A stretch of DNA of 64,000 bases from an uncultured Gemmatimonadales bacterium. GTDB taxonomy: Bacteria; Gemmatimonadota; Gemmatimonadetes; Gemmatimonadales; Gemmatimonadaceae. Below, piece after piece: positions 5,146 through 60,639 of this stretch. The stretch is from positions 32,001 to 96,000 of the forward strand of contig CAWKNZ010000009.1 in the NCBI GenBank assembly GCA_963851265.1, in the 5' to 3' direction. The position numbers and the translations under genes were made by a program. The notes under the pieces are model-generated. The model was given only the letters and a program-made list of their open reading frames with translations, ran no database searches and was not told where the DNA came from. The first letter of the stretch is position 1, and the number at the start of each line of letters is the position of its first letter.

Positions 5146-7827
5146 ATGGCCGTTTCCGTCGAGCTACCCGCACCGCCGGCCTCCACCGCCCCAGACCCGC
5201 GCGAGCTGGTGGTCACCCACGTCCGTGCCCTGCGCGGTCCCAACTACTGGCGCCTCGCGCCGGTCATCGCCTGCGACGTCCGGCTCGGCGCGCTCGAGCG
5301 GGTGACGTCCGCGGACATGGACGGCTTCGCCGACTGCCTCCTCGCGGCGATGCCGAGTCTCCACGAACACCCGTGCAGCCCCGGCCGCCCGGGCGGCTTC
5401 GTCGAGCGACTCGCCCGCGGCACGCACCTGCCGCACATTCTCGAGCACGCCGCGCTCGAGTTCCAGACGCTGGCCGGGAACGACGTGCACTTCGGGCGGG
5501 TCGTGCCGAGCGGCGATCCGGGCGTGTGCTGGGTGATCGTCGAGTACGACGAGGAGGAGGTCGGCCTCGAAAGCGTGCGCGAGGCGGCCGCGCTCGTGCG
5601 CGCCTGCATGGACGGCACGCCGTACGACATGGACGGCGTGGTGCGACGGCTCGTGCGGCTTCACGAGACCGCGCGTCTCGGACCCTCGACGTCGGCAATC
5701 GTCGAGGAGGCGCGGCGCCGGGGGATCCCGGTGCGCCGACTGAACGAGCGTTCGCTCGTGCAGTTGGGCCTCGGCCGCAACCTCCGGCGGCTTCGCGCCA
5801 CCGTCACCGGGTCCACATCGCTGATCGGCGCGGAGATCGCCCAGGACAAAGAGGACACGCGGCGCGCGCTCCAGAACGTCGGGCTGCCGGTGCCGCGGGG
5901 GGGTGTGGCCGATACGCTCGACGACGCGCTCGCGCTCGCAACGCGCGTCGGCTATCCCGTCATCCTGAAGCCGGTCAACCTGAATCACGGTCGGGGCATC
6001 TCCGACCGCCTCGACACGCCGGACGATCTCGCGGCCGCGTGGGAGGCGATGCCCGAGGAAGTCCATCGCGGGTCGTCGCGCGGGCTCATCGTCGAGCGGT
6101 TCGCCACGGGACGCGATCACCGAGTGCTCGTGGTGAACGGGCGGGTGGTGGCGTGCGCCGAGCGCGTACCGGCGCACGTGGTCGGCGACGGCGTGCGCAG
6201 CGTGAGGGCGCTCATCGAGGACGCGAACCGCGACCCGCGCCGAGGGCGCGGGCATGCCAAGGTGCTCACCTTCCTTCCCTGCGACTCGACGACGGAGGAG
6301 TACCTCGTCCGCCGCGGGCTCACGCTCGACAGCGTGCCGGCCGCGGGTGAGCCGGTGTTCCTGCGCGCGACGGCGAATCTGAGCACCGGCGGCACCGCGG
6401 TCGACCGCACCGAGGAGATGCACCCCGACAACGTGACCGCGTGCGAGATGGCGGCGGGGATCGTCGGGCTGGACGTGGCCGGGATCGACGTGCTCACCCC
6501 GGACATCTCGCGGCCGTTCCGCGAGACCGGCGCGGTTATCATCGAGGTGAATGCGGGGCCGGGGATCCGCATGCACACGCATCCGGCCGTCGGCACTCCG
6601 CGGAACGTCGCCGCGCCGATCGTCGACATGCTCTACGCCCCCGGGCAGCCGACGACGATCCCGGTAATCGCCGTCACCGGGACTAACGGCAAGACCACGA
6701 CGACTCGCCTCATCGCCCACCTCTTCCGCCACACGGGCGTCAACGTCGGCTTCACCACGACCGACGGCATCTACGTCAACAACCGCCTCGTGGCCGAGGG
6801 TGACATGACGGGGCCGTGGTCGGCGAACGTGATCCTCTCCAACCCGACGGTCGACGTGGCGGTGCTCGAGACCGCGCGCGGCGGGCTCCTGCGTGCGGGG
6901 CTCGGGTTCGACGAGTGCGACGTCGCGATCGTGATCAACGTCTCGGCCGACCACCTCGGGATCGGCGGAATCCATACGCTCGATCAGCTCGCGATGGTCA
7001 AGGGCGTCGTGCCCGCGGTCGCGAAGCGCGAGGGGCACGCGGTGCTCAACGCCGACGACCCGCTCGTCTTCGGGATGGCGGCGCGGACGAACGCCGACGT
7101 GGTGCTCTTCTCGACGCGCCCGGCCGGCGAGAATCCCGAGTTCGAGGCGCACCTCGCGCGCGGCGGGATCGGGGCGCGTATCGCGGACGACGCCTTCGTC
7201 GTGTGCCGCGGCAAACTGCGCATCCCGATCGCGGCCGTGCGCGACGTGCCGTTGATGTTAGGCGGCGCGGCGCGGTTCCAGGCGCAGAACGTGCTCGCCG
7301 CGGTGCTCGCCGCGTACGTGCGCGGCGTGCGGTACGACGACATCCGTGCCGGTCTGCTCACGTTCTTCCCGTCCACGGCGCTCACCCCCGGGCGCGTCAA
7401 CCTCCTGCGGCTCGGGCGCAAGCGCGTCCTCGTCGACTACGGGCACAACGCCGCCGCGGTGGAAGGCATCGTCGACGTCGCGCGGCACCTCGAGGCGCGG
7501 CGCCGCGTGGGCGTGGTGACCGGCCCGGGCGACCGCCGCGACGAGGACCTCCGCACGCTGGGGCGCCTCATGGCGCCGCTCGACCATGTCATCATCAAGG
7601 AGGACGTCGACCGCCGCGGCCGCCGGCCCGGCGAAATTGCCGCGCTCATCCGCGAGGGGCTTCTCGAAGGCGGGCTCGATCCGGCGCACCTCGAGGAGGT
7701 GCTCGACGAGCGTGCGGCCGTCCAGCGCGCGGTCGACATCCTCGACGACGGCGACCTCGCCCTGGTAGCCGCGGTCGACGTCCGCACCGTGCTCGACCTG
7801 CTCGGCGCTCTCGGCGCGCACGGGTGA
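5146..7827 (+). CDS. cphA: Cyanophycin synthetase
   Basis: 893 aa. N-domain ALRGPNYW, HILEHAALE, LGPST; ATP-grasp KPVNLNHGRG, ANLSTGG, IEVNAGPG; Mur-ligase domain VTGTNGKTTT, LETARGG, DYGHN. Confidence 0.95.
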   Translation: MAVSVELPAPPASTAPDPRELVVTHVRALRGPNYWRLAPVIACDVRLGALERVTSADMDGFADCLLAAMPSLHEHPCSPGRPGGFVERLARGTHLPHILEHAALEFQTLAGNDVHFGRVVPSGDPGVCWVIVEYDEEEVGLESVREAAALVRACMDGTPYDMDGVVRRLVRLHETARLGPSTSAIVEEARRRGIPVRRLNERSLVQLGLGRNLRRLRATVTGSTSLIGAEIAQDKEDTRRALQNVGLPVPRGGVADTLDDALALATRVGYPVILKPVNLNHGRGISDRLDTPDDLAAAWEAMPEEVHRGSSRGLIVERFATGRDHRVLVVNGRVVACAERVPAHVVGDGVRSVRALIEDANRDPRRGRGHAKVLTFLPCDSTTEEYLVRRGLTLDSVPAAGEPVFLRATANLSTGGTAVDRTEEMHPDNVTACEMAAGIVGLDVAGIDVLTPDISRPFRETGAVIIEVNAGPGIRMHTHPAVGTPRNVAAPIVDMLYAPGQPTTIPVIAVTGTNGKTTTTRLIAHLFRHTGVNVGFTTTDGIYVNNRLVAEGDMTGPWSANVILSNPTVDVAVLETARGGLLRAGLGFDECDVAIVINVSADHLGIGGIHTLDQLAMVKGVVPAVAKREGHAVLNADDPLVFGMAARTNADVVLFSTRPAGENPEFEAHLARGGIGARIADDAFVVCRGKLRIPIAAVRDVPLMLGGAARFQAQNVLAAVLAAYVRGVRYDDIRAGLLTFFPSTALTPGRVNLLRLGRKRVLVDYGHNAAAVEGIVDVARHLEARRRVGVVTGPGDRRDEDLRTLGRLMAPLDHVIIKEDVDRRGRRPGEIAALIREGLLEGGLDPAHLEEVLDERAAVQRAVDILDDGDLALVAAVDVRTVLDLLGALGAHG

Positions 7828-7859
7828 CGCGTCCTCGTCTCACACCGTAGCCGGCGCGG

Positions 7860-8741
7860 TCATCGCGTCCCGGCGAGCCGCTCCTCCGCCTTCCGGGCCG
7901 AGTGGCACGCCGGCGTGCGCCGGGCGAAGTCGAAGGTGTCACCCGTGTTGAGCAGGTGTAGCCGGAGGTCGAACACCGACAGCGTGCGGTCGCGCGCCTC
8001 GTCGACGAGGTTGCTGTGCGTCACGTCCCGGCCGTCGATCACGTACACGCCCCCTTCACCGAGTACCGTGAACGCGCGGCCGTCATCGCAGACGATCGCG
8101 GTGTCCTCGTCGATGCCGACTCCGAGCATGCGCGGGTTTTGCGCGACCGCGCCGATGAGGCGCCCGACGCGCCCCCGCTCGGCGAAGTGCTGGTCGACGA
8201 TCACGCCCGACAGGAATCCGAATCCCGGCGCCATCCGGAGTGCGTCGTCTACCCGCGGTGAGACCGAGCTGTTGCCGGTGACCAACATGGTCTCGCAGAC
8301 CACGGACGCCCCGGCCGAGGTGCCGGCCACGCACCCACCGCCCTCGTAGATCGCGCGGACGCGCTCGTAGATCGGGGTGTCGCCGAGCTGGCTGGTGAGC
8401 TTGAGCTGATTCCCACCCGTGAAGAACACCACGGCCGCGTCGTCGAGCACACCGAGGCGTTCGGCGTCGTGCGCCTCCTCGCGCGTGTCCACGTGCAGGT
8501 GGCGGACGTCGTGCACGCCGAGGTCGCGGAACACCGGCTCGTATTCGCCCCAGAGCTCGTCGGGAAGATTGCTCGCCGCCGTGACGACGACGAGTGCGCC
8601 GCGGTCGGCGTGGGCGGCGACGGCGCGTAGGATCAGGCAGTCGCCCTTCTTGTCCTCGTGTCCACCGATGATGATGAGCGTTCCGGTGGATGCGGCGGTC
8701 GGGCTGGAACCGTCCTGGTCGGATTGATCGTGGTGAGCCAT
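7860..8741 (-). CDS. cphB: Cyanophycinase (peptidase S51)
   Basis: LIIIGGHEDK, FFTGGNQ, catalytic GTSAGA, DQHFAERGR, GIDEDT. No signal peptide. ATG at 8741. Confidence 0.93.
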   Translation of the reverse strand: MAHHDQSDQDGSSPTAASTGTLIIIGGHEDKKGDCLILRAVAAHADRGALVVVTAASNLPDELWGEYEPVFRDLGVHDVRHLHVDTREEAHDAERLGVLDDAAVVFFTGGNQLKLTSQLGDTPIYERVRAIYEGGGCVAGTSAGASVVCETMLVTGNSSVSPRVDDALRMAPGFGFLSGVIVDQHFAERGRVGRLIGAVAQNPRMLGVGIDEDTAIVCDDGRAFTVLGEGGVYVIDGRDVTHSNLVDEARDRTLSVFDLRLHLLNTGDTFDFARRTPACHSARKAEERLAGTR

Positions 8742-8812
8742 CGGTGTCGTCGTTGGGCCGGTGATGTGGTCGCCTGCGGCGACCTCGGCGTGTGTCCGTT
8801 CGGTCTGGCTGG

Positions 8813-9961
8813 TCAGTGCCGCTGACCGACGAGATCGATGCGCCGGCGACTCGTCGCGAGAAAGCGTTCGCGTTCGACGAGGCGCCCGTCGTCCACGACG
8901 TGCCGCCCGCGGGCGAACACGTGCACGACCTCGAGCGAGTCGGCGCGGAGCACGAGCACGTCGGCGTCGCAGCCCCGAGCGAGGCGCCCCTTGTGCGGCA
9001 GCTTGAGCACCGACGCGGTGTTGCGCGTGATCAGCGGGAGCATGCGCGCGAGCGGGATCCCGTGGCGCACGACGCAGTCGCGCCACTCCGCGGCGAGCTG
9101 GCCCGGACTGCTCGTCCCGGTGTCTGACGAGATCGTGAGGCGGTCGGGATGGCCGCCGTGGTCGAACCAGTACGTCACCCACCGCGCGAGGTCACCCTCG
9201 ACGGTGTCGATGTCGGCGTGGGCGCCGCGCGCGACGAGGGCGATCGCCTCGTCCATGAGCGCCTCCGTGCGCTCGATGTGTGTGGGGTAGAGCATGTCGG
9301 GCGTCACCGGGTAGTCGCCGTCGAGCAGGTGGAACAGGCGGCGGAGCCGGTTTGCGTGCGCGCCGACGTGGAAGTGGGTGACGCCGGCCTTCCGACTCAG
9401 CATCCCGCCCACGTGCGTGTCGAGCACGAGCTTCGCGAGCTCGTCGGCCGACGGGTCGACGCCGCGGTGGTCGGCGATCGCGATCTCGCCCGCGCCGATC
9501 ACCTCGTCGATGAACAGCATGTCGTTGCGGATCGATCCGGTGACCGTGGTCGGCGGCACGTTGTAGCCGCCCGACCAGCAGTACGCCGTGAGCCCCTCCT
9601 CCTTGAGCCCCTTCACGCGGGCGAGCAGGCCGGCCATCGTCTTCATCGTCGTGTCGACGCCCAGCGCACCCACCACGGTCGTGATACCGTTAGGCACGAT
9701 CTCGCTCAGCACGACTTCGGGCGTCTGCGTCGCGTAGCCCTCCTCACCGCTGCCGCCGAGGAGGTGCTCGTGGGGGTCGATGAAGCCGGGGGTCGCGAAG
9801 CAGCCCGTCGCGTCGACGACGGCGAGGTCGAGCCCGGCAGCTTCGACGGCGCGCCGGTCCACGCGTCCGATCGTGCCGACCTTGTCCCCGACGAGGAGGA
9901 GGCTCGCCGTGCCGAGTGGCTCGGGGGCGAACACGTCGGCATTCTCGATCAGCGTGAGCAC
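8813..9961 (-). CDS. iadA: Beta-aspartyl (isoaspartyl) dipeptidase, amidohydrolase family
   Basis: PGFIDPHEHLLGGSGEEG, GITTVVG, GEIAIADHR, HFHVG, LYPTH, TISSD. GTG start at 9961. Lies next to cphB. Confidence 0.88.
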   Translation of the reverse strand: MLTLIENADVFAPEPLGTASLLLVGDKVGTIGRVDRRAVEAAGLDLAVVDATGCFATPGFIDPHEHLLGGSGEEGYATQTPEVVLSEIVPNGITTVVGALGVDTTMKTMAGLLARVKGLKEEGLTAYCWSGGYNVPPTTVTGSIRNDMLFIDEVIGAGEIAIADHRGVDPSADELAKLVLDTHVGGMLSRKAGVTHFHVGAHANRLRRLFHLLDGDYPVTPDMLYPTHIERTEALMDEAIALVARGAHADIDTVEGDLARWVTYWFDHGGHPDRLTISSDTGTSSPGQLAAEWRDCVVRHGIPLARMLPLITRNTASVLKLPHKGRLARGCDADVLVLRADSLEVVHVFARGRHVVDDGRLVERERFLATSRRRIDLVGQRH

Positions 9962-9999
9962 ACGATGCGGGGCGGATTGTTGGCGGCCAAATTGCTGGG

Positions 10000-10016
10000 G
10001 GCAATGGTCGTTCCAC
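10000..10016 (-). promoter_or_regulatory. Putative sigma54 (-24/-12) promoter of iadA-cphB
   Basis: Minus strand reads GTGGAACGACCATTGCC (TGGAACG-N4-TTGC), about 40 nt upstream of the iadA start. Confidence 0.6.
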
Positions 10017-10091
10017 TCGCGTATCCGCGTCGCGGTCTCCGCGTGGTGCGCGCACCGTCGCTCGGCGCACGAATTCCACGGTAACAGGGCC

Positions 10092-10421
10092 ATGAAGGCG
10101 ACCATCTACGACCGGCTACAAGGCGACCGGGTCGCGCACGTGGTGCCGCCTGCGTACCGCGACGTGCTCCCGTCGCCGCTCGATCCGGCGGCCTCGTACT
10201 CGGTGCTGTTGTTCGCGCACACGGCCCGGGACGTCGTCCCCTCGGCTGCGGTGCGGCGTGCGCTCCGGCGGCTCGGCGCGCCGGCCGCGGGCGGCATTCT
10301 CGCGGTCGGTACCGTGTTCACCGCCGAGGCGCTCGCACTGCTCGCCGAGCAGGGCGCGCAGGTCGTCGCGCAGCGGAAGGGCCGGTGGACCGATCAGAGC
10401 GCGCGCGAGCGACAGCCGTGA
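10092..10421 (+). CDS. Hypothetical protein (109 aa)
   Basis: MKATIYDRLQGD...; GC3-biased codons; GTGA overlap with the next gene. Confidence 0.6.
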   Translation: MKATIYDRLQGDRVAHVVPPAYRDVLPSPLDPAASYSVLLFAHTARDVVPSAAVRRALRRLGAPAAGGILAVGTVFTAEALALLAEQGAQVVAQRKGRWTDQSARERQP

Positions 10422-10771
10422 GCCGCGGAGCAGCGGACGAGGACGCGGGACGCGCGAACGTCGGCCATGCGCGAGGCGGACCCTGGCTGACCTACCGGTA
10501 CCGCTTCGCCGACGCGGCCGGGGCCGAGGCGAGCGGGACGATGAAAGCTCCTTCGTTCCTGAGCGCGGCGCGGCGCATTCTCGCGCGACGGCTGACCGGT
10601 GCGCTCGGACCCGAGCCCGCATACCTCCGACTCCGCGCCGCCGGCGAGGACGAGGTGCTGCTGCGCGTCGTGCAGACCCCGGCGGACGCTCCCGACGCGC
10701 CGCGTCTCGAGGTCGTGCCGGCGGACACGTACCGCTTCGTGTCGCACGGTCCTGCTTCCCCGGGCAGTTAG
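10418..10771 (+). CDS. Hypothetical protein
   Basis: GTG overlaps the upstream stop. PWLTYRYRF...LEVVPADTYRFV reads as protein-like. Confidence 0.55.
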   Translation: MSRGAADEDAGRANVGHARGGPWLTYRYRFADAAGAEASGTMKAPSFLSAARRILARRLTGALGPEPAYLRLRAAGEDEVLLRVVQTPADAPDAPRLEVVPADTYRFVSHGPASPGS

Positions 10772-10797
10772 ACGCGTCGCGTGCGGGTCGCCTCGAC

Positions 10798-10843
10798 CGC
10801 GTCGCCTCCAGCGCGTCGCCTCCAGCGCGTCGCCTCCAGCGCG
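10798..10843. repeat. Intergenic tandem repeat (CGCGTCGCCTCCAG)x3
   Basis: Three perfect 14-bp units plus a partial fourth, upstream of the M48 gene. Confidence 0.9.
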
Positions 10844-10943
10844 GTGACGCGCGTGTAGCGACCGATGCGGAGCGAGGCACGTAGCTTGTCGGGTGCGTGC
10901 GCGATCCCGCGCTCGTCCGTCCGCGTCTCGAGTCCCTACCCCG

Positions 10944-11819
10944 ATGTTCGAACACCGGCCGCGCCGTGCGTCGGCGCTCGCCGTTCGTTGGTGCGCGGCC
11001 CTTGCCCTCGCGGCGTCCGTCCTCGCGGCGTGCAGTCCCGTGTCACAGGATCAGGAGGTCCAGCTCGGCGCCCAATCCGCGCAGCAGATCAGCGCGCAGC
11101 TGCCGATCCTGACCGATCCGCTCGTCACCGCGTACGTGGACAGCCTCGGCCGCGCGATCGCACGGCACACGGCCCGGGCCGACCTCGACTGGCACTTCGC
11201 CGTGGTGAACACCGACGTCGTGAACGCGTTCGCCCTGCCCGGCGGCTACGTGTACGTCAACCGCGGCGTGCTCGCGCGGGCGACCACGATGAGCGAACTG
11301 GCCGGCGTGCTCGGGCACGAGATCGAGCACGTGGTGAGGCGACACTCGGTGCGTCAGATGCAGCAGACCCAGGAGGCCCAGACCGGCGTGGCGGTCGTGT
11401 GCATGCTCACGAAGGTCTGCACGCACGCGGCCGCGCAGGTCGGCATCAACCTCGCGGGCACGCTCGCGTTCGCGCGGTTCAGTCGGGCCGACGAATCGCA
11501 GGCCGACTCGGGCGGGTTCCAGAACGTGATCCGCGCCGGCATCGACCCGACCGGCATGCTCACCTTCTTCCAGACGCTCGCCGCGACGGAGCAGGCGGCG
11601 GGCGGCGGCCCGTCGCTCGTCTCCGCATGGTTCACCGACCACCCGGGCACGCAGCAGCGGATCGACGACATCCAGCGGATGCTCGCTACCCTGCCCCCCG
11701 GCGCGCGAGCCACCCTCGCGCGGGATGATCCGGCGTATCAGGACGTCCGCGCCCGGCTGCGCACGTTGCCGGCTCCCCCCGCGCCGGTCGACTCGACGCG
11801 CGCCGATGCGTCACGGTGA
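10944..11819 (+). CDS. M48 family (BepA/YfgC-like) zinc metalloprotease, lipoprotein
   Basis: Lipobox LAAC, VNAFALPGG, ELAGVLGHEIEH (HExxH), ESQAD, TDHP. Confidence 0.88.
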   Translation: MFEHRPRRASALAVRWCAALALAASVLAACSPVSQDQEVQLGAQSAQQISAQLPILTDPLVTAYVDSLGRAIARHTARADLDWHFAVVNTDVVNAFALPGGYVYVNRGVLARATTMSELAGVLGHEIEHVVRRHSVRQMQQTQEAQTGVAVVCMLTKVCTHAAAQVGINLAGTLAFARFSRADESQADSGGFQNVIRAGIDPTGMLTFFQTLAATEQAAGGGPSLVSAWFTDHPGTQQRIDDIQRMLATLPPGARATLARDDPAYQDVRARLRTLPAPPAPVDSTRADASR

Positions 11820-11916
11820 CCACCCGCGTCGCGATCTGCTCCGCGGCCCGACGCGCCGCGCTGGACCATGCCCGACGCGGTGCGTTGAACCAGAGGCGCG
11901 TTACACGACGGGCGCC

Positions 11917-12924
11917 TTACACCACCCAGGGCTGGGGCACCCACGCGTAGCCTCCACCTTCCGCGCGGACGTGGCCCAGACCGGGGAACGGCAGGTGGTA
12001 GCCCATGACCCGCGTGCGGCCGGCCGCGGCCTCGGCGAACAGCGCCCGCCGCGTGGTGACCGCCTGCGCCGGATGCGTGTCGAACGCCATCGTCCACTCG
12101 GGGCGCGCGAACTGGATCGCGTACTGGTGCACGGCGTCGCCGACGTGGAGTAGGGTCTCGCCGCCGACGGTGATGCGCACGGCCTGATGGCCGGGCGTGT
12201 GGCCCGGGGTCGGGACGTACGTCACCCCGGGAACCAGGGTGGTCCCGGCCGCGGCGCGCTCGAGCCGGGAGCCCACGCCGCCGAGGAACTTGCGCGCGGT
12301 GGCCGTGGCCTGGGTGCGGCCTGCGGGGGGCACGCGTGATCCGGTCCAGTCCTGCCGGTCGCTCGCCCAGAACGCCGCCTCGTCGGCCGCGACCAGCACG
12401 CGCGCGCCCGGGAAGGCCGGCGCGCCGTCGGCCCCCAGCAGGCCCGCCACGTGGTCGCCGTGGGCGTGCGTGATCACGACGGCCGCGATGTCGGCAGGTG
12501 CGACGCCGACCCGCGCCAGGCCGCGCGTCAGGCGGCCCGCCGTGGGGCCGAGCGCCGTGCCTCCGCCGGCATCGATCAGGACCGGCCCGCCGGGCAGCTT
12601 GACGAGCAGGACGTTCAGGCTGAGCGCAACGTGATCGGTCGGGAGGTACGCGTCCCGGAGCAGCTGCGCGACCTCCGCCGCGGGTGCTTCGGGCGCGATG
12701 ATCGACTGCACACCCGGGACGGTGAAGACGCCGTCGTGGATCACGAACGCGTCCGCGCCGCCCAACTGAAACGCGTAGACGTCCGGCTCGGCCGCCTCGG
12801 GCGGGGTGGCGGACGGATGTGGCGTGCGGGGCGCGGCGAAGGCAGGTCCCGCGGCAGCGGTTCCGGCGAGGAGGGCGGTGCCAGCGGCCGCGTGTCGAAG
12901 CAGGTCGCGTCGTGTGATCGTCAT
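11917..12924 (-). CDS. Tat-exported MBL-fold metallohydrolase (MPH/AHL-lactonase-like)
   Basis: TRRDLL Tat signal, THAHGDH, TPGHTPGH, GDAVH, YHLPFPGLG. Confidence 0.88.
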   Translation of the reverse strand: MTITRRDLLRHAAAGTALLAGTAAAGPAFAAPRTPHPSATPPEAAEPDVYAFQLGGADAFVIHDGVFTVPGVQSIIAPEAPAAEVAQLLRDAYLPTDHVALSLNVLLVKLPGGPVLIDAGGGTALGPTAGRLTRGLARVGVAPADIAAVVITHAHGDHVAGLLGADGAPAFPGARVLVAADEAAFWASDRQDWTGSRVPPAGRTQATATARKFLGGVGSRLERAAAGTTLVPGVTYVPTPGHTPGHQAVRITVGGETLLHVGDAVHQYAIQFARPEWTMAFDTHPAQAVTTRRALFAEAAAGRTRVMGYHLPFPGLGHVRAEGGGYAWVPQPWVV

Positions 12925-13192
12925 CGGTCGAGTGTCGGGGACCAGGGTGTCGGGCGCCGCTGTGTCAGGGGTCGAAGCGGTCGTAGATCGGCACTCAACG
13001 TTACACCGCGCGGATTGGTGCGCGGGTCGGGCGCGTAGCCGACGCGGCGGCGACCACGCGCGCGGCGGAGGTACGATCCGTACCCCTTGCGACCACTGGT
13101 TCGACCGGCGGGTGGGCCCGGCCGCTCGAGGATCCGCGAGCCGAGCACCCGGCGTCTCGCAGGACGGGGCGGGTGCGACCGCGTGGATACCG

Positions 13193-13999
13193 TTAGGCCG
13201 CTCGCGGGTCGCCGGCGAGGTACGTCCCCAACGCCTGCCGCACCGCGTCCGACGTACGCGCCCCGGCCACGCCGTCGACCTTCACGAACACGCCGGGGAG
13301 CGTGTTCAACCAGCGCTGCAGGGCCTCGGCCCGCTCGGCAACCGCGGGATCGGCGGGGCGTGCGGTCGCGTAGGGTACGAGCGGCGGCGCGCCCGCGGTC
13401 GGGGCCTGCTGGTCGGGGAACTCCATCACGGCGCGCTCGGCGAGCCGTCGCAGCAGCACCGCCGCCCCGCACTGCGTCGAGCGCGCCGTGGCCGACCACG
13501 TGCCGTCGGCCACGTACTTGCCGCTGTCGTACCAGTCGGAGAAGCTCCACAGGTACGGCGTGCGGACCTCGGGGTGGTACAGCCGGTAGCCGAACCCGTT
13601 GTATCCCTCGACGTGGTAGAGCGTGTCGGAGAGCCCCCACCCGCTTCCCGCGTTCAGCCCGCGGCACGCGAGCGCGTCGCCGGCGCTCGCCTCCCAGGTG
13701 AACGGCGGACTTCCGTTGGTCGGCCTCCCTTCCGGCACGTGCGCCGTGCGCGCCGTGAGCGGGTCGCCGTTGTGGAGGTGGCACCTGAAGCTGCGGTCCG
13801 ACTCCATGTTGTGGATCACCGCGACGACGTACCACGGCACGCCGGTCGTGGCCTGCACGGCCTCGTAGCGCGCGCGGTCGGCGAGGATGCCGTCGCACAC
13901 GCGGTCGACTTCCGCGGCGTGCTCCGGGCGCGGCTGACATCCGTTGAACAGCGCCTCGTACTCGTCGCCGAGGGTGGCGGTGAACGCGACGGTGGACAC
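13193..13999 (-). CDS. Lysozyme-family protein with C-terminal peptidoglycan-binding domain
   Basis: VPWYVVAVIHNMES, HLHNGDPL, EGYNGFGYR, PYLWS, GKYVADG; PG-binding LQRWLN...VDGVAGART. AAGGAGG RBS precedes the GTG. No signal peptide. Confidence 0.82.
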   Translation of the reverse strand: MSTVAFTATLGDEYEALFNGCQPRPEHAAEVDRVCDGILADRARYEAVQATTGVPWYVVAVIHNMESDRSFRCHLHNGDPLTARTAHVPEGRPTNGSPPFTWEASAGDALACRGLNAGSGWGLSDTLYHVEGYNGFGYRLYHPEVRTPYLWSFSDWYDSGKYVADGTWSATARSTQCGAAVLLRRLAERAVMEFPDQQAPTAGAPPLVPYATARPADPAVAERAEALQRWLNTLPGVFVKVDGVAGARTSDAVRQALGTYLAGDPRAA

Positions 14000-14084
14000 G
14001 GGATTGATCCTCCTTGGGGCGGGCGGGGAGGTGCGAAGCGGGCGAAGCGCGCGGAAGGCGCGGAGCTGCCGACCGCGGATGTGC

Positions 14085-15446
14085 CTAACGCAGCGTCGTC
14101 ACCTGCCAGTGCACGAGGTCCGGGTACTTCGCCGTGGCGTCCACCGGGCGCTCGGCGACCATCTGGTCGACCGCGGCCGCGAACGACTGCTGCATGGCGT
14201 CCGTCGGCGGGGCGGGCGTGCCGAGTTCGGCCGTCGGCGAGAGCGGGAGCGCGGGAGCGGGCGGGGGCGGCGCCGGGCGCGGCGTGCTTCGCGTCAGCGC
14301 CGCCGACACGCTCGCGATCCCCTGCGCCCGCCGCGCGTCGACGCTGTCGGAGTACGGCGTGCCGGGCGCGCCGAAGCGCTCGGCGAGGAATTGCAACACC
14401 GACGTGTGGTCGAGCGGCGCGTGGCAGACGCTCGCGGCGTCGACCAGCGGGGAGAGCACCACCGCCGGCACGCGCGGCCCCGTGCTCTCGAACACCCCCC
14501 CGGGCGCGCCCGCGACCGGCTGCCGCACGGGGAGCGGCGGGACGTGGTCCCAGAAGCCGCCGTGCTCGTCGTACGACACGACCATCACCGTCGTCGCCCA
14601 GCGCGCCGGATTGCCGACGAACGCGGCGTACGTGCGCCGGAGGAACGCCTCGCCGAAGCCCACCGGGAGCGGCGCGTGGTCGTCGTTCCCGTGGCGGCCT
14701 AACATCCGCTCGATCGAGTCGTACGCCGGCTCGACGACGATCACCTGCGGGAAGGTCGCGTCCGGCTCGGTGAGCACGTCGAGCGCGAGGCGGCTCGTCG
14801 GGGCGAAGTTCGGGCCGAAGACGTGGCCGAGCTGCCCCGTGTAGAGCGTGAAGAACGAGAAGCTCTCGTGGTACACGCGCCAGCGCACGCCCCGCGCCGT
14901 GAGCCAGTCGAGCACCGTCGGCCCCGCGTCGATCACCCCGGTGCCGGTGGTCGCGATCGGGCTCGCGCCGGTGAGCGCCATCGTCTTGTTGGGCTGCGTG
15001 CTCGTCGGCAGCGGCGCGAACCAGCGGTCGCACGTGCAGTAGCTGCGCGCGAAGAAGCTCGTCACCGGGACGTGGTCGGCTCGAACGAACGCCATCGGCT
15101 CGGCCTGGCTGCTCGCCACGCGGCAGCCGTCGGCCCTCGCGTACGCCTCGACGAATCCGTTCATCTCGTAGCGCCCCGTGACGTCGGACTTCGCGAGCTG
15201 CGTCGTGACGGCACCGGCTTCGTGCGGCAGGTCGCAGGAGAGCGTGCCGTCGTCGACCATCGGCCACGGGTGGTAGAGCGCGCCGTCGAGCGGATTCGCG
15301 TACCGGTCGCTCGCGAGCGGTTGCGTGAGGCCGTCGACGCCGGGTACCAGCCCGTCGAGGCTCAGGTGCCCGAGCATGTGGTCAAACGAGCGGTTCTCCA
15401 TCATCACGAGCACGACCGTCTGCACCAGCGTGCGTAGCTCCGGCAT
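14085..15446 (-). CDS. Phospholipase C / AcpA phosphoesterase family protein (no signal peptide)
   Basis: VVLVMMENRSFDH, TSTQPN, DDHAP, YDEHGGFWDHVPP, GPRVP, DHTSVL. ATG is coupled to the upstream stop (TGATG). Confidence 0.87.
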   Translation of the reverse strand: MPELRTLVQTVVLVMMENRSFDHMLGHLSLDGLVPGVDGLTQPLASDRYANPLDGALYHPWPMVDDGTLSCDLPHEAGAVTTQLAKSDVTGRYEMNGFVEAYARADGCRVASSQAEPMAFVRADHVPVTSFFARSYCTCDRWFAPLPTSTQPNKTMALTGASPIATTGTGVIDAGPTVLDWLTARGVRWRVYHESFSFFTLYTGQLGHVFGPNFAPTSRLALDVLTEPDATFPQVIVVEPAYDSIERMLGRHGNDDHAPLPVGFGEAFLRRTYAAFVGNPARWATTVMVVSYDEHGGFWDHVPPLPVRQPVAGAPGGVFESTGPRVPAVVLSPLVDAASVCHAPLDHTSVLQFLAERFGAPGTPYSDSVDARRAQGIASVSAALTRSTPRPAPPPPAPALPLSPTAELGTPAPPTDAMQQSFAAAVDQMVAERPVDATAKYPDLVHWQVTTLR

Positions 15447-21097: not shown

Positions 21098-21121
21098 CGC
21101 GGGGGCGGAGCGGGTCCGGCG

Positions 21122-23457: not shown

Positions 23458-23513
23458 CCGCCCCGCCGCCGTCCGTCCGTCGTCCTTCCGCCACCTCTCG
23501 TCAGGGATTTGAC

Positions 23514-44038: not shown

Positions 44039-44089
44039 CGCCGGACGCTGCCTGATGCGTGTCGTCGCCGCCGGGACCGTGCGGCAGGT

Positions 44090-47467: not shown

Positions 47468-47718
47468 GGCCGCGTCGTGAAGGCGGGGTCGAACGGGGGA
47501 GGGACGGACTGCTGTCCCTGGACGATCGTCCGCCGATCCGGTCCCACGGCGGGGAGCGACTGACACGAGAACGTGGTCGCAGGCGCGCGGGCGCGGCCTA
47601 ACAGCGCGCGCCCGCCGCGGCCCGCGCCGGGGGCGCGGGCCAGCCTTCCGGGCCGTCGCGCTGTCTCAATCCGTATCCCGTTGTAACGCGCCGCCCCGCT
47701 GTTCCGTACATTCGAGTC

Positions 47719-49803: not shown

Positions 49804-49843
49804 GCGGATCGCCTCGCGCGAACGCGTGACGCGATCGTGCGGG

Positions 49844-50434
49844 CTACGGTTCGAGCGTCGCGCCGGGTGAGGGGTCGGGCGCGCGCCGTGCGCGTACCGT
49901 CAGATAGGCCACCGTGTCCCACGCGTTGTGGATGCCGATGCAGAGCAGGACCAGCGTCATGGCCGCGACCACGAAGAGCGCGGCGTGGGGATCGCGCACC
50001 AGCCCCGCCGCGACGGCGACCCCGGCGTATGCACCCGCCGGCAGCCCCACGTGCCAGATCCAGTCTTCCAACACGGGCTGGTAGACGGTCTGGCGACGCG
50101 TACGGCGGAGAACGATGCCGACGTACCCTACCCCGATGAGCCCCGCCGCGACGAGCACGAGACGCACACCGGCGAGCGAGGGCCACGGGGCACTCAGGCC
50201 GGCCGAGAAGAGAAGCGCCGCGGCGAAATGCACCACCGTCGGCGTTCCGAACGCCGCGACGGTGTGCTCGGCGTTCCCGTCGATCGGCGTCGGCACCGAC
50301 GCCTGCCCGATGAGCGTCTGCACGACGAACTGCAACCCGGTCAGCGCCGCGGCAGCCGACCCCGTGATGACGTAGTAGTTCGCCCACGGTTCGAGCAGGG
50401 CGTGCGCCAGCTCGGGCCCGGTCACCGGCGTCAC
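49844..50434 (-). CDS. Hypothetical membrane protein
   Basis: WANYYVITGSAAAALTGLQFV, about 5 TMs, GIHNAWD. Starts directly after the AKR stop. Confidence 0.75.
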   Translation of the reverse strand: MTPVTGPELAHALLEPWANYYVITGSAAAALTGLQFVVQTLIGQASVPTPIDGNAEHTVAAFGTPTVVHFAAALLFSAGLSAPWPSLAGVRLVLVAAGLIGVGYVGIVLRRTRRQTVYQPVLEDWIWHVGLPAGAYAGVAVAAGLVRDPHAALFVVAAMTLVLLCIGIHNAWDTVAYLTVRARRAPDPSPGATLEP

Positions 50435-50435
50435 G

Positions 50436-54640
<4,205 letters not shown>

Positions 54641-54830
54641 GGGGCGTCCGTGATAGGGCCGGCGTGGAAGCGGAAGCGCTACACGCCTCGGCCACAACAA
54701 TACGCATCGCGTGTCACACCGCGAGTGAGGATCGGGTGAGGATCGGGTGATCGCGCCGCGCGATAGTCGCGTCGCCGCGTCGGACACCCCGGTTCTGCTG
54801 CGGCTCGTCCCCGACTCCTGGTGTGTACCG

Positions 54831-55790
54831 ATGCGATTCCTGAGTTTCCCCGGGCGTACGCCGCGCGAGGCACGTTGCACGCTCGGCGCGCTCGCCGTGG
54901 GCGCGCTCGCGCTCGGCGCCTGCGCCGATGGCCCCGGCGCGACGGCGCCGTCGCCGGCCGCGGCGATCGTCGCGCCGTGCGCGGCCAACCGCGCCAACCA
55001 GTCGCAGCTGCAGTTGGTGTGCAGCGCGGGGGTGACCGACGCCGTGCAGACCGGGCACGCACCGGGCGGCTCGATCTTCCGCACCGGCTTCGAGCCGCCC
55101 ACCTACACCGCAGGCCCGCTGACCGGTCAGGACGGCTGGCTCAGCATCACCCACGACGCGGCCGCGACGGTCTCCGCGGACCGGCCGCGTGAGGGCCGCC
55201 AGTCCATGCACATCGATGGCCGGCTCGTCGTGCCGATTCCGGGGCAGGACGCGACCGGTAGCGTGAACTTCCGCAATCTGTTCTACGACACCGGTGCGGC
55301 GGGAACGCCGATCGTCGACGTGCAGGCGGACGTGCGACTCGACGGGCCCCGGACGTACAGCGACGATCCCAACGACGACGCGGTCAGCGCCCGTCTCGTG
55401 GCGATCGGCCTCGACCCGGATGGTGCGCGCCGGCGCCTGGGCTTCGCCGTGGTGTCGTCGGTCGGCGCGTTTCACGCCGAAGCCGACGGTGGCCGGATCG
55501 TCGCGGCCGCGCCGACCACGCTGGGCCACGCGCACACCGTCCGGATGCGGTGCGATTTCGCGCGTCGCACCATCGAGTTCTTCCTCGACGGCCGCTCGTT
55601 AGGCACCTGGCCGTTCTTCGACGCCGCCGCCACGTCCACCGTACTCGCGAACGTGCGGCTCGACCTGCGGGCCGAGAGCACCCCGCAGTACGACGCCGCG
55701 CCATACCAGGCCTCCTTCGACAAGCTCGCCGTGCGGGTCGCGCGGCCGGGGGCAGAGCGCCCCGACCCGGACGACGACGACGGACGGTGA
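54831..55790 (+). CDS. Hypothetical lipoprotein (beta-sandwich)
   Basis: LGAC lipobox, FRTGFEPPTY..GPLTGQDGW, beta-rich body. Confidence 0.7.
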   Translation: MRFLSFPGRTPREARCTLGALAVGALALGACADGPGATAPSPAAAIVAPCAANRANQSQLQLVCSAGVTDAVQTGHAPGGSIFRTGFEPPTYTAGPLTGQDGWLSITHDAAATVSADRPREGRQSMHIDGRLVVPIPGQDATGSVNFRNLFYDTGAAGTPIVDVQADVRLDGPRTYSDDPNDDAVSARLVAIGLDPDGARRRLGFAVVSSVGAFHAEADGGRIVAAAPTTLGHAHTVRMRCDFARRTIEFFLDGRSLGTWPFFDAAATSTVLANVRLDLRAESTPQYDAAPYQASFDKLAVRVARPGAERPDPDDDDGR

Positions 55791-55966
55791 GCACCGTCGG
55801 TCGACGGTGGCGTGGGGTCACGCCGGTTCCACCCGGGCCGCCCCGGCGCGGGCCGGCGTCGGGCGCGCCGGGTCCGCGTTCCCGGCCGCGCGACTCGCGC
55901 GGAGGCCCGCCCGACGTTTGCGCGGTCGCGACCGTCGTCGTATCCTGGGCGCGGGTCCGGGACGGC

Positions 55967-56368
55967 GTGAACACCCGTGGAGAAGAGAATGGGCACGGTC
56001 AGGGGTTCGGGCACTTTCTGTTTTGGACCGGCACGCAGCTCCGGAACGTCGAGGGGCGCACGTTCCTCGTCACCCTCGTCAGGCGCGACGACCATGGGAC
56101 GTTCAACGAGTACCTGATCCGAAGGACGGTCGAGAACGACCTGGCGCGCATGGGCGCGGTGCGAGTGGCCGCCGGACGCATCCCGTCGCGCGTGCTCGCC
56201 ACGATGAGCGACGTCGACGAGCAGAGCCTCGGCGCGGGGCTCGGCGACGCCTGGAACGATCCGGTCCAGACGTGGCGGGTCCGGCGCCCGACCGGCGACC
56301 TCTGGGTGCAGTACACGGACAACTCGGCCGAGGCCTCGCCGGCGGTGGTCGAGGCGCGGCCCGACTGA
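55967..56368 (+). CDS. Hypothetical protein or gene fragment
   Basis: FLFWTG..VEG, NEYLIRR, GLGDAWNDPVQTW.VRR..GDLWVQ reads as protein-like. Start uncertain; no signal peptide. Confidence 0.5.
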   Translation: MNTRGEENGHGQGFGHFLFWTGTQLRNVEGRTFLVTLVRRDDHGTFNEYLIRRTVENDLARMGAVRVAAGRIPSRVLATMSDVDEQSLGAGLGDAWNDPVQTWRVRRPTGDLWVQYTDNSAEASPAVVEARPD

Positions 56369-56438
56369 CCGGTTCGCGGTCCGGCGCGCGTGAACCCGTC
56401 CGGCCGCACCGAGCGCGACGTCCCGAGCAGAATCAGCC

Positions 56439-57359
56439 ATGACACACACGAACGGTCACGCGAGCGCCGACAACGCGTCGCCGGCGCGTGACGCGTGACG
56501 CCCGGCGCGTGACGCGCCGACGCTCGCCGCATCGGACCCATTCACGTCGTTCAAGGCCGCCCAGCGCGACGTGTGGGCCGGCTTCGCCGTGAACGAGGCG
56601 GCGACCACGCCTCCTGCCGCTGCCCTCGTCGGGTTCGCCGCGGTGCGCCCGGGCGAGACGGTGCTCGACGTGGGGTGCGGCACGGGTGTCGTGGCGCTCA
56701 CCGCGGCCCGCGTCGGCGCGCACGCAACGGGGCTCGACCTCACGCCCGCCCTGCTCGAGCGCGCCCGCGAGCACGCCCGGATCGTACAGCTCGCCGTCAC
56801 GTTCGACGAGGGTGATGCCGAGTCGCTCCCCTACCCCGACGCGGCGTTCGACGTGGTGCTCAGCCAGTTCGGCCACATGTTCGCGCCACGACCCGAGGTC
56901 GCGACCGCAGAGATGCTCCGCGTGCTGAAGCCCGGCGGGCGGATCGCCTTCTCGACCTGGCCGCCGGAACACGGGATGGGCCAGCTGTTCGCCCTGCTCG
57001 GTCGGTACCAGCAGCTGCTGCAGCCGCCCGCCCCCGGCGCGCCTCCCCCCGGCGCGCCCGCCCCCGCCGCGCCGGCGCGGTGGGGCGACCCGGCCGTCGT
57101 ACGCGAGCGGCTCGGCGAGGCCGTGACCGACCTGCGGTTCGACCGGGGCGTGATGGCGACTCCGGCGCTCAGCCCCCGGCATGCGCTGGCCTTTCTCGGC
57201 GCCACGTTCGGCCCGCTCGTCCGGATCGTCGCCGGGCTGGACGCGCAACCGGAGCGCGTCGCGCAGCTGCGCGACGAGGTCCTCGCGCTGCTGGACGGGA
57301 TCTTCGTCGACAACACGCTGCGGCAGCATTTCCTGATGACACGCGCCCTCAAGCGCTAA
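56439..57359 (+). CDS. Class I SAM-dependent methyltransferase (in-frame TGA at 56496-56498 if ATG 56439 is the start)
   Basis: VLDVGCGTG, GDAESLPY, FDVVLSQFGHMF, RVLKPGG. The DPF..FKAAQ..W segment lies upstream of the GTG at 56571. Confidence 0.8.
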
Positions 57360-57508
57360 CGCCCGCCCCCCGGTCGGCGCTCGTCCGACCGCGTCTGCAC
57401 GTCCTGCTCGAAGGGGCGCGTCACGTCGTCGGCAGCCACAGGCGTGGCAATGCCTGGCAGACGGACTGCGGCCGGTCGATTTGACGCGACTCGTCGACCG
57501 GTCGACGC

Positions 57509-58363
57509 ATGCGGGCGAACCTGCGGCTCCTGAAACGCCATGCCACGCGATTGGAGGACTTCGATGTCCGCACCACCACGCCCACTGTCTCCGACCCACC
57601 GCGACGGTCGGTGGGAGCTCGTCGTCCATCGGACACCGCCGGTGCCCGAGCCGTGAGGGGCGCCGCGCTCTGGAGCATGGTCGCCGCACTCGCGCCTGCG
57701 GCGCTCGTGGCGCAGGCGACTCCGCCGCGCGCCGGTGCGCTCGGCGTGCCGTCGGCATCGGACGAGGTACGGTGCGTGGATCCGGCGGCGGCTGTCCCGC
57801 GCCCGGCGTACGGCTGCTTCAACGTCGGCCACCGCGCCGGCCTGACGTTCGCCGACACGCTCGTCGTCTGGCGCCTGTATCGCTTCGCGGACCGCGCCGC
57901 CGCCGAGGCGGCCCGCAGCCCGCGCGGCGTGGTGGCGGAGGTCGCAGACACCGTGTGGCTGAGTGAACTCGCGGAGCAGGGGGCGCCGCCGGCGCGCGCG
58001 GCCGGCGGCGCCCTCGCGCTGGAGAGCGGTCCGCTGGTGCTACCCCCGGCGCCCAGCTACGAGGCGAGCCTGGCGTACGCGGTCTTCCGCCCCGGGATGC
58101 GCTCGCGCGTGCACGTGCACGCCGGGCCCGAGGCGTTCTACGTGCTCGCGGGCGCGCAGTGCGTCGAAACGCCCGCCGGCGTCGTCCGCACCGCGGCCGG
58201 CGGGACGACCGTGCTTGCAGCCGGCACCCCGATGGCGCTCGCCGCGGCAGGCGACGGAGAGCGCCGCGCGTTCGCGATCGTCGTGCACGACGCGCGGCGC
58301 CCGCAGGCGGAGGCCACGCCGTGGCGCCCCGCGGGCGCGTGTGGCGGCACGACGGGACGTTAG
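57509..58363 (+). CDS. Exported cupin-domain protein
   Basis: HVHAGPEAFYVLAG cupin motif and a signal-like segment. Start is probably 57653 or 57677. Confidence 0.72.
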   Translation: MRANLRLLKRHATRLEDFDVRTTTPTVSDPPRRSVGARRPSDTAGARAVRGAALWSMVAALAPAALVAQATPPRAGALGVPSASDEVRCVDPAAAVPRPAYGCFNVGHRAGLTFADTLVVWRLYRFADRAAAEAARSPRGVVAEVADTVWLSELAEQGAPPARAAGGALALESGPLVLPPAPSYEASLAYAVFRPGMRSRVHVHAGPEAFYVLAGAQCVETPAGVVRTAAGGTTVLAAGTPMALAAAGDGERRAFAIVVHDARRPQAEATPWRPAGACGGTTGR

Positions 58364-58755
58364 GCAGATGCACGCATGCTCACCGTCCCGGGCGTCCGCG
58401 CGTCGGGTCGATAACACCCGTTAGGCCGGCGCGGTCGTGAGGTCCGCCGCGTGGCGGGTGCCGTGCGGGCCGGTGACACCCGGCCCGCACGCCGAGGCGT
58501 GGACACGGCCCCGGTCGGGCGCGCCGACGCGCGCCGCCACGCGTGTTCCCGATGGCGCAGCGTCCACGCTACGCCGTCGCACGACGTCGATCGACGGAGA
58601 CCGTGTCGCGTGCGCCCGGACGTCCCCGTTGCGCGTGCGATTTGTTGCGTCACAATGTAATGTGTGAGATCCGAACGGAGCACGACGGCGCCCGCACACC
58701 GGGCGCGCGCGCGCCTCCGTGCCTGGACACCGTGCATCCGACGCCGCCGCCTCGA

Positions 58756-60639
58756 ATGTCCGTATTCGCCACCGCGCGTCCTCGACACGCCGCCGTCGGC
58801 GTGGTCCCGCGCCCTCGCACCCTGGCGCTTCTCGCCGGGCTTCTGTTGGCCGGCGCCTGCGTGCGCGAACGGGAACGCGCGCCCGCCGCCGAAGCGGCGC
58901 GGTCCCCCGCCCTCCCCAGCGGCCCGCGCGCGAGTGCGGTCCTCGACGCCGAAGACGGCCAGTGGACGCGGCCCGCCAAGAGCTACTCGTCGCTGCGCTA
59001 CAGCCAGCTCGGCGAGATCACGACGGCCAACGTGCGCGGCCTGCGGCCAGCGTGGACGTTCTCGACCGCGGTGCTGCGCGGGCACGAGGAGCCGCCGCTC
59101 GTCGTGAACAACACGATGTACGTGCTCACGCCGTTCCCGAACCTGCTCTACGCGCTGGACCTGACGCAGCCGGGCGCGCCGGTGAAGTGGACGTACACGC
59201 CCAAGCCCGAGCCGGCGTCGCAGGGCGTCGCCTGCTGCGACGTCGTGAACCGCGGGCCGGTCTACGACAACGGCCGCATCTTCTACAACACGCTCGACGA
59301 CCACGTCGTCGCGGTGGACGCGGCCACGGGCAGGGAGGTCTGGAAGACCAAGGTCGGCGAGATCAACCTCGGCGAGACCATGACCATGGCGCCGCTCGTC
59401 GTGAAGGGGAAGGTGCTGGTCGGCGATTCGGGCGGCGAGATGGGCGTGCGCGGGTGGATCAAGGCGCTCGACGCCGGGACCGGGAAGGTGGTCTGGACGG
59501 CGTACAACACCGGACCCGACAAGGACGTGCTGATCGGGCCGCGTTTCAAGGCGTTCTATCCCAAGGATCAGGGGAAGGACCTCGGCGTGAACTCGTGGCC
59601 CGGCACGCAGTGGCAGATCGGCGGCGGCACGGTGTGGGGGTGGCTGTCGTACGACCCCGAGCTGAACCTGGTCTACTACGGCAGCGGCAACCCCGGGCCG
59701 TGGAACCCGTCGCAGCGGCCGGGCGACAACAAGTGGACGTCGACCGTGTTCGCGCGCGACCCCGACACGGGTGAGGCGGTGTGGGCCTACCAGGTGAGTC
59801 CGCACGACATGCACGACTACGACGAGGTCAACGAGTCGTTGCTCCTCACGGTGCCGTGGAAGGGACGGCAGCGCCGCGTGCTGCTGCGCCCCGGGCGCAA
59901 CGGCTACGTGTACCTCATCGACCGGACCAACGGCGAGGTGCTGTCGGCGGAGCCCTTCGTGCACATCACGACGACGAAGGGCGTCGACCTGAAGACAGGG
60001 CAGCTGCTGTACGAGCCGACGCAGGAGCCGCAGGTGGGCCGGGTGGTGCGCGACGCCTGCCCCGCAGCGCCGGGCGGCAAGGACTGGCAGCCGTCGGCGT
60101 TCTCGCCGCGCACGGGGCTCGCGTACCTGCCGCACCAGAACCTCTGCCAGGACGTCGAGGGGCTCGAGGCCAACTACATCGCCGGCACGCCGTACGTCGG
60201 GATGAACGTGCGCATGAAGGCGGGCCCGGGCGGCCACCGCGGCGAGTTCACGGCGTGGGACCCGGTCGCGGCGCGCCCGGTCTGGACGATCAAGGAGCGC
60301 TTCCCGGTGTGGAGCGGCGCGCTCGTCACGGCGGGCGACGTCGCCTTCTACGGCACGATGGACGGCTGGTTCAAGGCGGTCGACGCGCGCACGGGCCGGG
60401 AGCTGTGGAAGTTCAAGTGCGGCTCGGGGATCATCGGCCAGCCGGTGACCTACCGCGGGCCGGACGGGAAGCAGTACGTCGCGATCGCGTCCGGCGTGGG
60501 CGGGTGGTCGGGCGCGATCGTCTCGGGCGGCCTCGACCCGCGCGACTCGACGATCGCGTTAGGCTTCGGCGCCGCGATGGCCGACCTGCCGCAGGCGACC
60601 ACGAAGGGGGGCACGATCTACGTGTTCGCGCTGCCGTGA
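58756..60639 (+). CDS. xoxF: PQQ-dependent methanol/alcohol dehydrogenase, lanthanide-type (XoxF-like)
   Basis: LRGHEEPPLVV, vicinal ACCDVVNRG, GGEMGVRG, GNPGPWN, RPGDNKW, HDMHDYDEVNE (D-x-D), SGIIGQP, GVGGW. Confidence 0.85.
   Translation: MSVFATARPRHAAVGVVPRPRTLALLAGLLLAGACVRERERAPAAEAARSPALPSGPRASAVLDAEDGQWTRPAKSYSSLRYSQLGEITTANVRGLRPAWTFSTAVLRGHEEPPLVVNNTMYVLTPFPNLLYALDLTQPGAPVKWTYTPKPEPASQGVACCDVVNRGPVYDNGRIFYNTLDDHVVAVDAATGREVWKTKVGEINLGETMTMAPLVVKGKVLVGDSGGEMGVRGWIKALDAGTGKVVWTAYNTGPDKDVLIGPRFKAFYPKDQGKDLGVNSWPGTQWQIGGGTVWGWLSYDPELNLVYYGSGNPGPWNPSQRPGDNKWTSTVFARDPDTGEAVWAYQVSPHDMHDYDEVNESLLLTVPWKGRQRRVLLRPGRNGYVYLIDRTNGEVLSAEPFVHITTTKGVDLKTGQLLYEPTQEPQVGRVVRDACPAAPGGKDWQPSAFSPRTGLAYLPHQNLCQDVEGLEANYIAGTPYVGMNVRMKAGPGGHRGEFTAWDPVAARPVWTIKERFPVWSGALVTAGDVAFYGTMDGWFKAVDARTGRELWKFKCGSGIIGQPVTYRGPDGKQYVAIASGVGGWSGAIVSGGLDPRDSTIALGFGAAMADLPQATTKGGTIYVFALP

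Follow-up and report, generated by a model that had tools for sequence, protein, structure and literature searches.

A genome-wide DNA word with a lineage-specific GC halo in a Gemmatimonadales genome

Why should TTA, a rare leucine codon in a GC-rich genome, stand so often before one particular glycine codon, GGC? The question is raised by a stretch of 64,000 nucleotides (G000:C9:32001-96000; "the window" below) of G000, the 4.60-Mb, 73% GC genome under study, from an uncultured soil bacterium of the Gemmatimonadales (family Gemmatimonadaceae). A sequence-only reading of the window had pointed to ten genes with TTA GGC inside one recurring motif and had proposed that selection or molecular drive acts on the DNA word through synonymous changes, as described for uptake sequences. 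We find a real, apparently undescribed DNA word, YGTTAGGC, spread over the whole genome and surrounded by a GC halo that is lineage-specific, and selection or drive on this word is observed. Our leading but tentative explanation, to which we assign a probability of about 0.42, is that YGTTAGGC is the site of an intracellular sequence-specific DNA-binding protein located at spaced points of the chromosome.

Genes of G000 were predicted with a custom dicodon-model caller (3,754 genes), and codon tables were drawn from the 3,510 genes of at least 100 amino acids. The core GTTAGGC is present in 1,762 copies, where Markov models of order 1 to 3 expect 96-160. The base 5' of the core is C in 79% of copies and T in 14%, which defines the word as YGTTAGGC; the other flanking positions are not fixed. 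The word is found about once per 2.6 kb, on both strands and without orientation bias (817 forward, 822 reverse), and intergenic copies are balanced as well. On contig C2, orientation goes with gene direction, unlike the polarity of Chi or KOPS along the replichore. A dif site was not found in G000, and an Rfam search gave no match. No description of YGTTAGGC or of its over-representation was found in a literature search whose scope excluded most subscription papers and all supplements.

The codon tables answer the question in its simplest form. TTA is followed by GGC in 997 of 1,269 cases (79%), as opposed to 2.0-9.6% for the other leucine codons (CTC 6,412/75,281; CTG 881/43,345; TTG 478/4,989; CTA 35/1,016; CTT 99/2,681), a clear difference in the direction that had been proposed. 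TTA makes up 1.0% of leucine codons, and 78% of TTA codons lie within one fixed DNA context. The word captures 935 of the 7,320 compatible sites that encode Leu-Gly after A, T, P, S, L, V or M (13%) and, on the template strand, 180 of 1,069 x-Pro-Asn sites (17%). It further captures Leu-Thr after C, G, R or S (64/1,847 compatible sites) and Val-Arg (22/3,015), and it supplies 115 of 406 TAA and 80 of 696 TAG stop codons. All 209 contacts of the word with gene edges, genome-wide, are at gene ends, and copies are spread evenly along genes. Capture on both strands, in several frames and at stop codons places the force on double-stranded DNA rather than on translation. In Streptomyces, TTA serves translational control through bldA, and a control codon here would fit the rarity of TTA and the tRNA-Leu(TAA) gene that is present. 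We give this explanation practically no credence, since TTA is so strongly tied to one DNA context, template-strand Pro-Asn is captured no less than Leu-Gly, and copies in stop codons and spacers already contradict it.

The window holds 31 copies of GTTAGGC on either strand: 16 genic, six on stop codons and nine intergenic. All ten sites of the sequence-only reading carry TTA GGC in frame inside GTTAGGC, and they account for 10 of the 11 TTA codons in the called genes of the window. The copies are as follows.

7256..7263, plus strand: ATG TTA GGC in the cyanophycin synthetase gene (Pfam, in-frame check).
14697..14704, minus strand: ATG TTA GGC in a phosphoesterase gene (Pfam, in-frame check).
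18999..19006, plus strand: TCG TTA GGC in an outer-membrane barrel gene (Pfam, in-frame check).
23411..23418, plus strand: GCG TTA GGC in a phosphodiesterase/sulfatase gene (Pfam, in-frame check).
24278..24285, plus strand: TCG TTA GGC in a second phosphoesterase gene (Pfam, in-frame check).
33092..33099, plus strand: CCG TTA GGC in gene 32863-34689.
45500..45507, minus strand: ACG TTA GGC in an RND transporter gene (Pfam, in-frame check).
50805..50812, minus strand: CCG TTA GGC in an aldo-keto reductase gene (Pfam, in-frame check).
55597..55604, plus strand: TCG TTA GGC in gene 54831-55790.
60557..60564, plus strand: GCG TTA GGC in a PQQ dehydrogenase gene (Pfam, in-frame check).
573..580, plus strand: copy in the least used coding frame, GTT AGG (Val-Arg).
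17808..17815, minus strand: template-strand copy, CGC CTA ACG, at the start of the barrel gene.
2961, 9689, 35375 and 41784 (span 2961..41791): four template-strand copies, x-Pro-Asn.
13192, 14083, 21121, 24165, 51558 and 58359 (span 13192..58365): six copies on stop-codon ends of genes.
4430, 4963, 17380, 28771, 32163, 32682, 37744, 47596 and 58420 (span 4430..58426): nine copies that are intergenic by the gene calls.

Seven of the ten gene names given earlier are backed by Pfam at family level, and the gene named xoxF has a PQQ dehydrogenase match; genes 32863-34689 and 54831-55790 have no Pfam family at E 1e-6. CTA and AGG codons had been described as forced in the same way as TTA. The CTA at 17808 and the AGG at 574 do lie in frame in the word, but the effect is minor: one of 15 CTA and one of 26 AGG codons in the window are in the word, and 72 of 1,022 CTA and 23 of 1,115 AGG genome-wide. 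A further CTA, at 32682, is doubtful, as its open reading frame (ORF; 32375-32866) was rejected by the gene caller and has no Pfam match.

Relatives show how the word changes. We compared G000 with G154, a relative, over 169 orthologues (420 kb of G154; 82% amino-acid and 65% four-fold-site identity). G154 keeps 38 of 61 G000 copies and lacks seven at sites where the peptide is identical; in the other direction, G000 lacks 34 of 104 G154 copies, likewise at sites with an identical peptide. At conserved Leu-Gly sites TTA is kept in 32 of 38 cases, TTG in 2 of 17, CTG in 1 of 16 and CTC in 106 of 131, and TTA is conserved solely in the word. Orthologue alignments contain switches between CTC, CTG or TTG GGC and TTA GGC with the peptide unchanged, which bears out the earlier proposal of a force on the DNA word that works through synonymous change. 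In word-poor relatives, those G000 word sites that still encode Leu-Gly mostly read CTC or CTG GGx. An effect on the amino acids was not detected: poor relatives retain Leu-Gly at 15 of 27 word sites versus 76 of 161 others (p 0.53). Population reads, from one run with shallow contigs, were uninformative, with no word-site variant among the 34 differences listed.

Each copy is surrounded by a zone that is poor in A and T. Third-position A/T is 3.5% within 60 bp of a copy, 7.0% at 0.8-1.2 kb and 8.8% at 5-10 kb; around a control word that encodes the same peptide it is nearly flat (6.2-7.8%). Within 404 genes the near-minus-far difference in A/T is -0.0236, versus -0.0088 ± 0.0016 in 200 permutations (lowest -0.0127), and at compatible sites that the word does not occupy it is -0.0035. 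The halo depletes both A and T and is slight at first and second codon positions. It is equal on the 5' and 3' sides of the word, which argues against a one-sided effect of the Chi or KOPS type. C/G divergence is flat across the halo (0.29-0.32 out to 2.5 kb). The halo follows the word lineage by lineage. When orthologues of G154 and G151 are pooled and A/T is given as G000/other, it is 3.9/2.3% around shared copies, 6.5/3.2% around copies found only in the other genome, 5.3/5.8% around copies found only in G000 and 7.7/6.3% far from both. Likewise, 21 word-poor miaB loci show no dip in A/T at the G000 word positions; miaB relatives at 71-82% identity belong to the Gemmatimonadaceae or Gemmatimonadales. 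When genes are called by a cruder method, G154 and G151 show the halo clearly.

Copies also keep apart. Neighbour gaps below 200 bp number 46 in G000 where 130 are expected. For copies in the Leu-Gly frame, 500 draws from compatible sites predict 23.7 ± 4.6 pairs less than 100 bp apart and 45.8 less than 200 bp apart, and we observe 0 and 6. Pair density is 0.2-0.65 at 50-300 bp in both orientations, with controls near or above 1. In stretches sampled from four relatives, the counts of 30-100 bp gaps are 3, 6, 1 and 2, with 9.4, 9.7, 5.7 and 10.9 expected. The only strong fine periodicity of copies is the codon period.

On a larger scale the word thins out around the chromosome partitioning site. 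The largest gap in G000, 45 kb (expected number 6e-5), spans parAB and parS. A ParB roadblock was considered and rejected as its cause, as relatives have copies within 1-5 kb of parS, yet within 60 kb of parS ten genomes show a broad dip (199 copies observed versus 305 expected). Out to about 50 kb from parS, ten relatives have the word at about 0.65 of its mean density in the genome. The parS of the genus, at G000:C1:192709 and 195715, is a GC-shifted perfect palindrome beside mnmG-parAB. A parA-parB-rep locus lies at G000:C8:256200-260526; its Rep matches just the two megaplasmids of Gemmatirosa kalamazoonensis, and around the locus the word is sparse in G000 and on both plasmids.

The distribution of the word within the order is patchy. 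All four other genomes of the genus are word-rich. Among 55 family genomes outside the genus, ten reach at least 100 copies per Mb and 39 have fewer than 40 (the unpublished G160, which is poor, is included); in an even draw of 150 phylum genomes, four reach 100 per Mb (the unpublished G057 and G097, both poor, are included). The word-rich G161 holds 7,189 copies, and plasmids of G. kalamazoonensis carry 32-44 per 50 kb. Sampled stretches show dispersed copies in three families. Variants are found as well: YGTTGGGC stands at 213 versus 52 per Mb, and CGTTAGGT, which ends in T, roughly equals the C form in number in G176 (L178-L182) and is frequent in G161 (L163-L166). Other dialect words were not found in 80-140 kb each of the poor genomes G177, G067, G016 and G131. 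In richer genomes the word also appears in short tandem repeats with 10-18 bp units, often directly 3' of stop codons (L193:5342, L195:8094, L270-L293). In a word-rich genome of another family, four copies lie directly 5' of a sigma-factor-like ORF (G148:C115:1881-1931).

A word that is non-palindromic, present in thousands of copies, evenly spaced and on both strands recalls the DNA uptake sequences (DUS) and uptake signal sequences (USS) of transformable bacteria (PMC1939737, PMC2397512). YGTTAGGC could be such an uptake or recombination tag, preferred in transformation, with uptake driving its abundance and spacing, focusing recombination and thereby raising local GC; we regard this as possible, if somewhat doubtful, and as a close rival to the intracellular binder. 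Capture of compatible sites climbs with the GC content at third codon positions (GC3) of the gene, from 3% (GC3 below 0.86) to 21% (GC3 above 0.96), as expected if newly acquired genes lack the word (PMC2817400). In 82% of 146 species GC goes up with recombination rate, a relation which that study ascribes to selection (PMC11879095), and the symmetric halo with its flat C/G divergence fits recombination. G000 encodes ComEC and, by motif, ComEA-like genes and three minor-pilin clusters. However, comEC is also found in word-poor relatives (41 of 48 miaB loci, 44 of the 48 being classed as poor), the presence of the one minor-pilin cluster examined is unlinked to the word, and no uptake receptor was found in G000. 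The comparison with uptake sequences drawn earlier is therefore supported in part: it stands for the force on DNA, the uptake role itself is the doubtful part, and the candidate intracellular protein described below points elsewhere. Inverted pairs less than 40 bp apart are scarce (6 of 1,750 neighbour gaps), unlike in neisserial terminators, and no clear excess of the encoded tripeptides is seen, unlike for DUS. The avoidance range of 100-300 bp falls far below neisserial conversion fragments of 1.1-1.7 kb (PMC2397512), and an uptake tag leaves the promoter stack described below unexplained. The examined pilin cluster lies in the window at 1374-4397 and is of the minor type IV class; close orthologues of its PilX-like gene turn up in scattered genera. 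This cluster was tried as the receptor and rejected, as a close orthologue is absent from G151 and G154 and present in the poor genomes G177, G092 and G136.

For this genus, a candidate for such an intracellular DNA-binding protein is encoded at G000:C4:24564-24953: a basic protein of 129 residues that combines a conserved domain of 55 residues with a Lys/Ala tail. Its promoter is the densest and top-scoring word cluster outside the cassette array of G000, with seven sites, strong and weak together, in 150 bp. The promoters in G151, G153 and G154 keep weak sites, one strong site and an inverted pair; G195 has a similar run of sites, and G241 and G240 have fewer. The N-terminal domain is 90-97% identical within the genus. 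It may adopt a ribbon-helix-helix (RHH) fold: a structure model (pLDDT 74) has helices at 4-13, 21-30 and 37-54 and an extended segment at 14-20, with the fold unconfirmed. Proteins with an RHH fold can recognise non-palindromic 7-bp words that lie in mixed orientation (PMC9499535). The family is small, with 18 representatives, two of them apparently spurious. A profile search found the candidate in 11 of 300 family genomes besides G000, and ten of the 11 carry 222-1,125 words per Mb, compared with the ten genomes of at least 100 per Mb among 55 in the family outside the genus (Fisher p 1.3e-5).

If a protein of this kind reads the word, it would bind the copies and occupy the chromosome at spaced points. 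A nearby second site would add little, which would account for the spacing of copies. The bound protein could protect against G:C-to-A:T damage or help to repair it, or could favour G/C in conversion, and the halo would follow from any of these. Such a reader inside the cell accounts for three things: the short range of the avoidance, the stack of sites in the promoter and the word-richness of carriers. We consider unlikely a more specific version, in which a self-regulated, histone-tailed protein reads thousands of copies of an attC-like word and each bound site, as a local guard, tilts mutation or repair towards G:C over a few hundred bases; the protein would then be a sequence-addressed chromosome coat to which the genome owes its altered codon usage and base composition.

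Several observations weigh against this explanation or its candidate. The carriers are confined to four genera, so the Fisher p overstates the association, and one carrier, G240, holds just 30 words per Mb. Five g124 carriers have no strong promoter copy within 260 bp and at most one weak site. Searches with the single sequence and with the profile did not find the candidate in the word-rich genomes G161, G140, G094, G104, G157, G173, G176, G148, G182 and G184; in these genera the word would have to be read by a different protein or by a strongly diverged form of this one. The candidate gene could itself be a target of the true reader. The candidate has no Pfam match and its model no Foldseek match, and the Atlas RHH match of 0.88 is a lead only. 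A precedent for a binding protein that raises local GC was not found. Avoidance in G154, G151 and G161 is clear solely below 100 bp, and a deficit beyond 100 bp persists only in G. kalamazoonensis. Finally, genes called by the cruder method show only a weak halo in G161, the G. kalamazoonensis plasmids and other rich genomes.

Other routes to a reader gave little. A match to the candidate in G178 proved to be a chance match. HU/IHF was rejected as the reader, with a second copy in the poor G177 and none found in the rich G161. The AP2 domain (PF00847) had no match in five genomes, where the control was silent too, and a motif scan of G000 found none. Scans of other genera for reader promoters with tandem runs of the word returned short tandem repeats and one sigma-factor promoter, with no small basic gene. 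Three more proteins of G000 have Lys/Ala histone-H1-like tails (C2:38635, C2:317990, C3:194320), two of them with word-like sites upstream, and a small gene that by eye resembles a light-harvesting subunit (G000:C10:154939-155450) has three.

The reader could also be a methyltransferase. HIP1, the palindromic octamer of cyanobacteria, is tied to two methyltransferases and to transformation. By analogy a methyltransferase would mark YGTTAGGC, and methyl-directed repair or recombination would create copies, keep them and surround them with GC. Enzymes like type IIG read asymmetric sites, and G000 has an intact type IIG-like adenine methyltransferase that forms a core gene pair with an adjacent SNF2 helicase. 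We consider this account improbable: 75 of 80 genomes have the enzyme whether they are rich or poor, no residue of its alignment separates 11 rich from 15 poor rows, and PF01555, PF00145 and PF02086 have no match in G000 or G151. A literature search on methylation motifs in the taxon did not turn up the word, and methylome tables in supplements, which lay outside the scope of the search, could bear on this account. The gene pair (G000:C7:579717-585511; intact NPPW) is single-copy, and nearly all of the 75 genomes belong to the same order.

The letters of the word point elsewhere as well. They match the core of the integron recombination site attC, whose consensus is GTTRRRY with an inverse core RYYYAAC (PMC3053210), and both variants, YGTTGGGC and CGTTAGGT, remain within GTTRRRY. 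The word is moreover the core of G000's own cassette array and of arrays in the poor genomes G001 and G004. Chromosomal copies might be acted on by an integrase or by some factor that has come to recognise attC cores. This is very unlikely, as the 55 of 80 genomes with intI include both rich and poor ones, no intI was found in the rich G104, G157 and G173, the intI of G000 is split by an insertion, and the dispersed copies have no inverse-core partner. An inverse core and core 57-141 bp apart, 3' of a gene, were found solely in the C10/C6 array. This long array (G000:C10:188900-215025 and C6:1-6100) holds many toxin-antitoxin-like and small genes and two IS110-like copies flanked by the complement of the word, and it ends at intI, where the insertion carries a serine-recombinase-like ORF.

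Bacterial words repeated across a whole genome are known in few cases (DUS, USS and HIP1), and YGTTAGGC adds one that leaves a measurable mark on base composition, specific to each lineage. No matter what reads it, the word offers a site-level test of what raises bacterial GC, be it recombination, biased conversion, repair or selection, and this is made feasible by word-poor and word-rich sister genera and by G. kalamazoonensis plasmids with the word.

Among known systems, the genomic pattern works like that of DUS/USS or HIP1, with membership of either unproven. Dispersed copies share their letters with attC, of which G000 has true sites (PMC3053210), but they are single, mostly genic and without a paired inverse core and hairpin. 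ParB/omega of plasmid pSM19035 is a small dimeric protein that reads a 7-bp word in direct and inverted repeats, as the candidate promoter might be read, and it does so at a few plasmid arrays rather than at thousands of single chromosomal copies (PMC9499535); the candidate differs from it further in its Lys/Ala tail and unconfirmed fold. HIP1 is a palindrome tied to two methyltransferases, whereas YGTTAGGC is asymmetric and no methyltransferase was found to track it. Both are octamers under codon-independent selection with non-random spacing, and a role in chromosome structure or maintenance has been proposed for HIP1 (PMC5861425). The word differs from the DUS of Neisseriaceae and the USS of Pasteurellaceae in phylum and letters, in having hardly any terminator pairs, in its patchiness within a family and in its GC halo, none having been found described for DUS in the literature search. 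It also uses the least common codon, in contrast to DUS/USS, whose favoured frames are those with preferred codons (PMC2817400). It shares with them a short non-palindromic form, thousands of copies on both strands, a frame bias within genes, even spacing, conservation beyond codon need and scarcity in atypical genes (PMC2817400, PMC2397512, PMC1939737).

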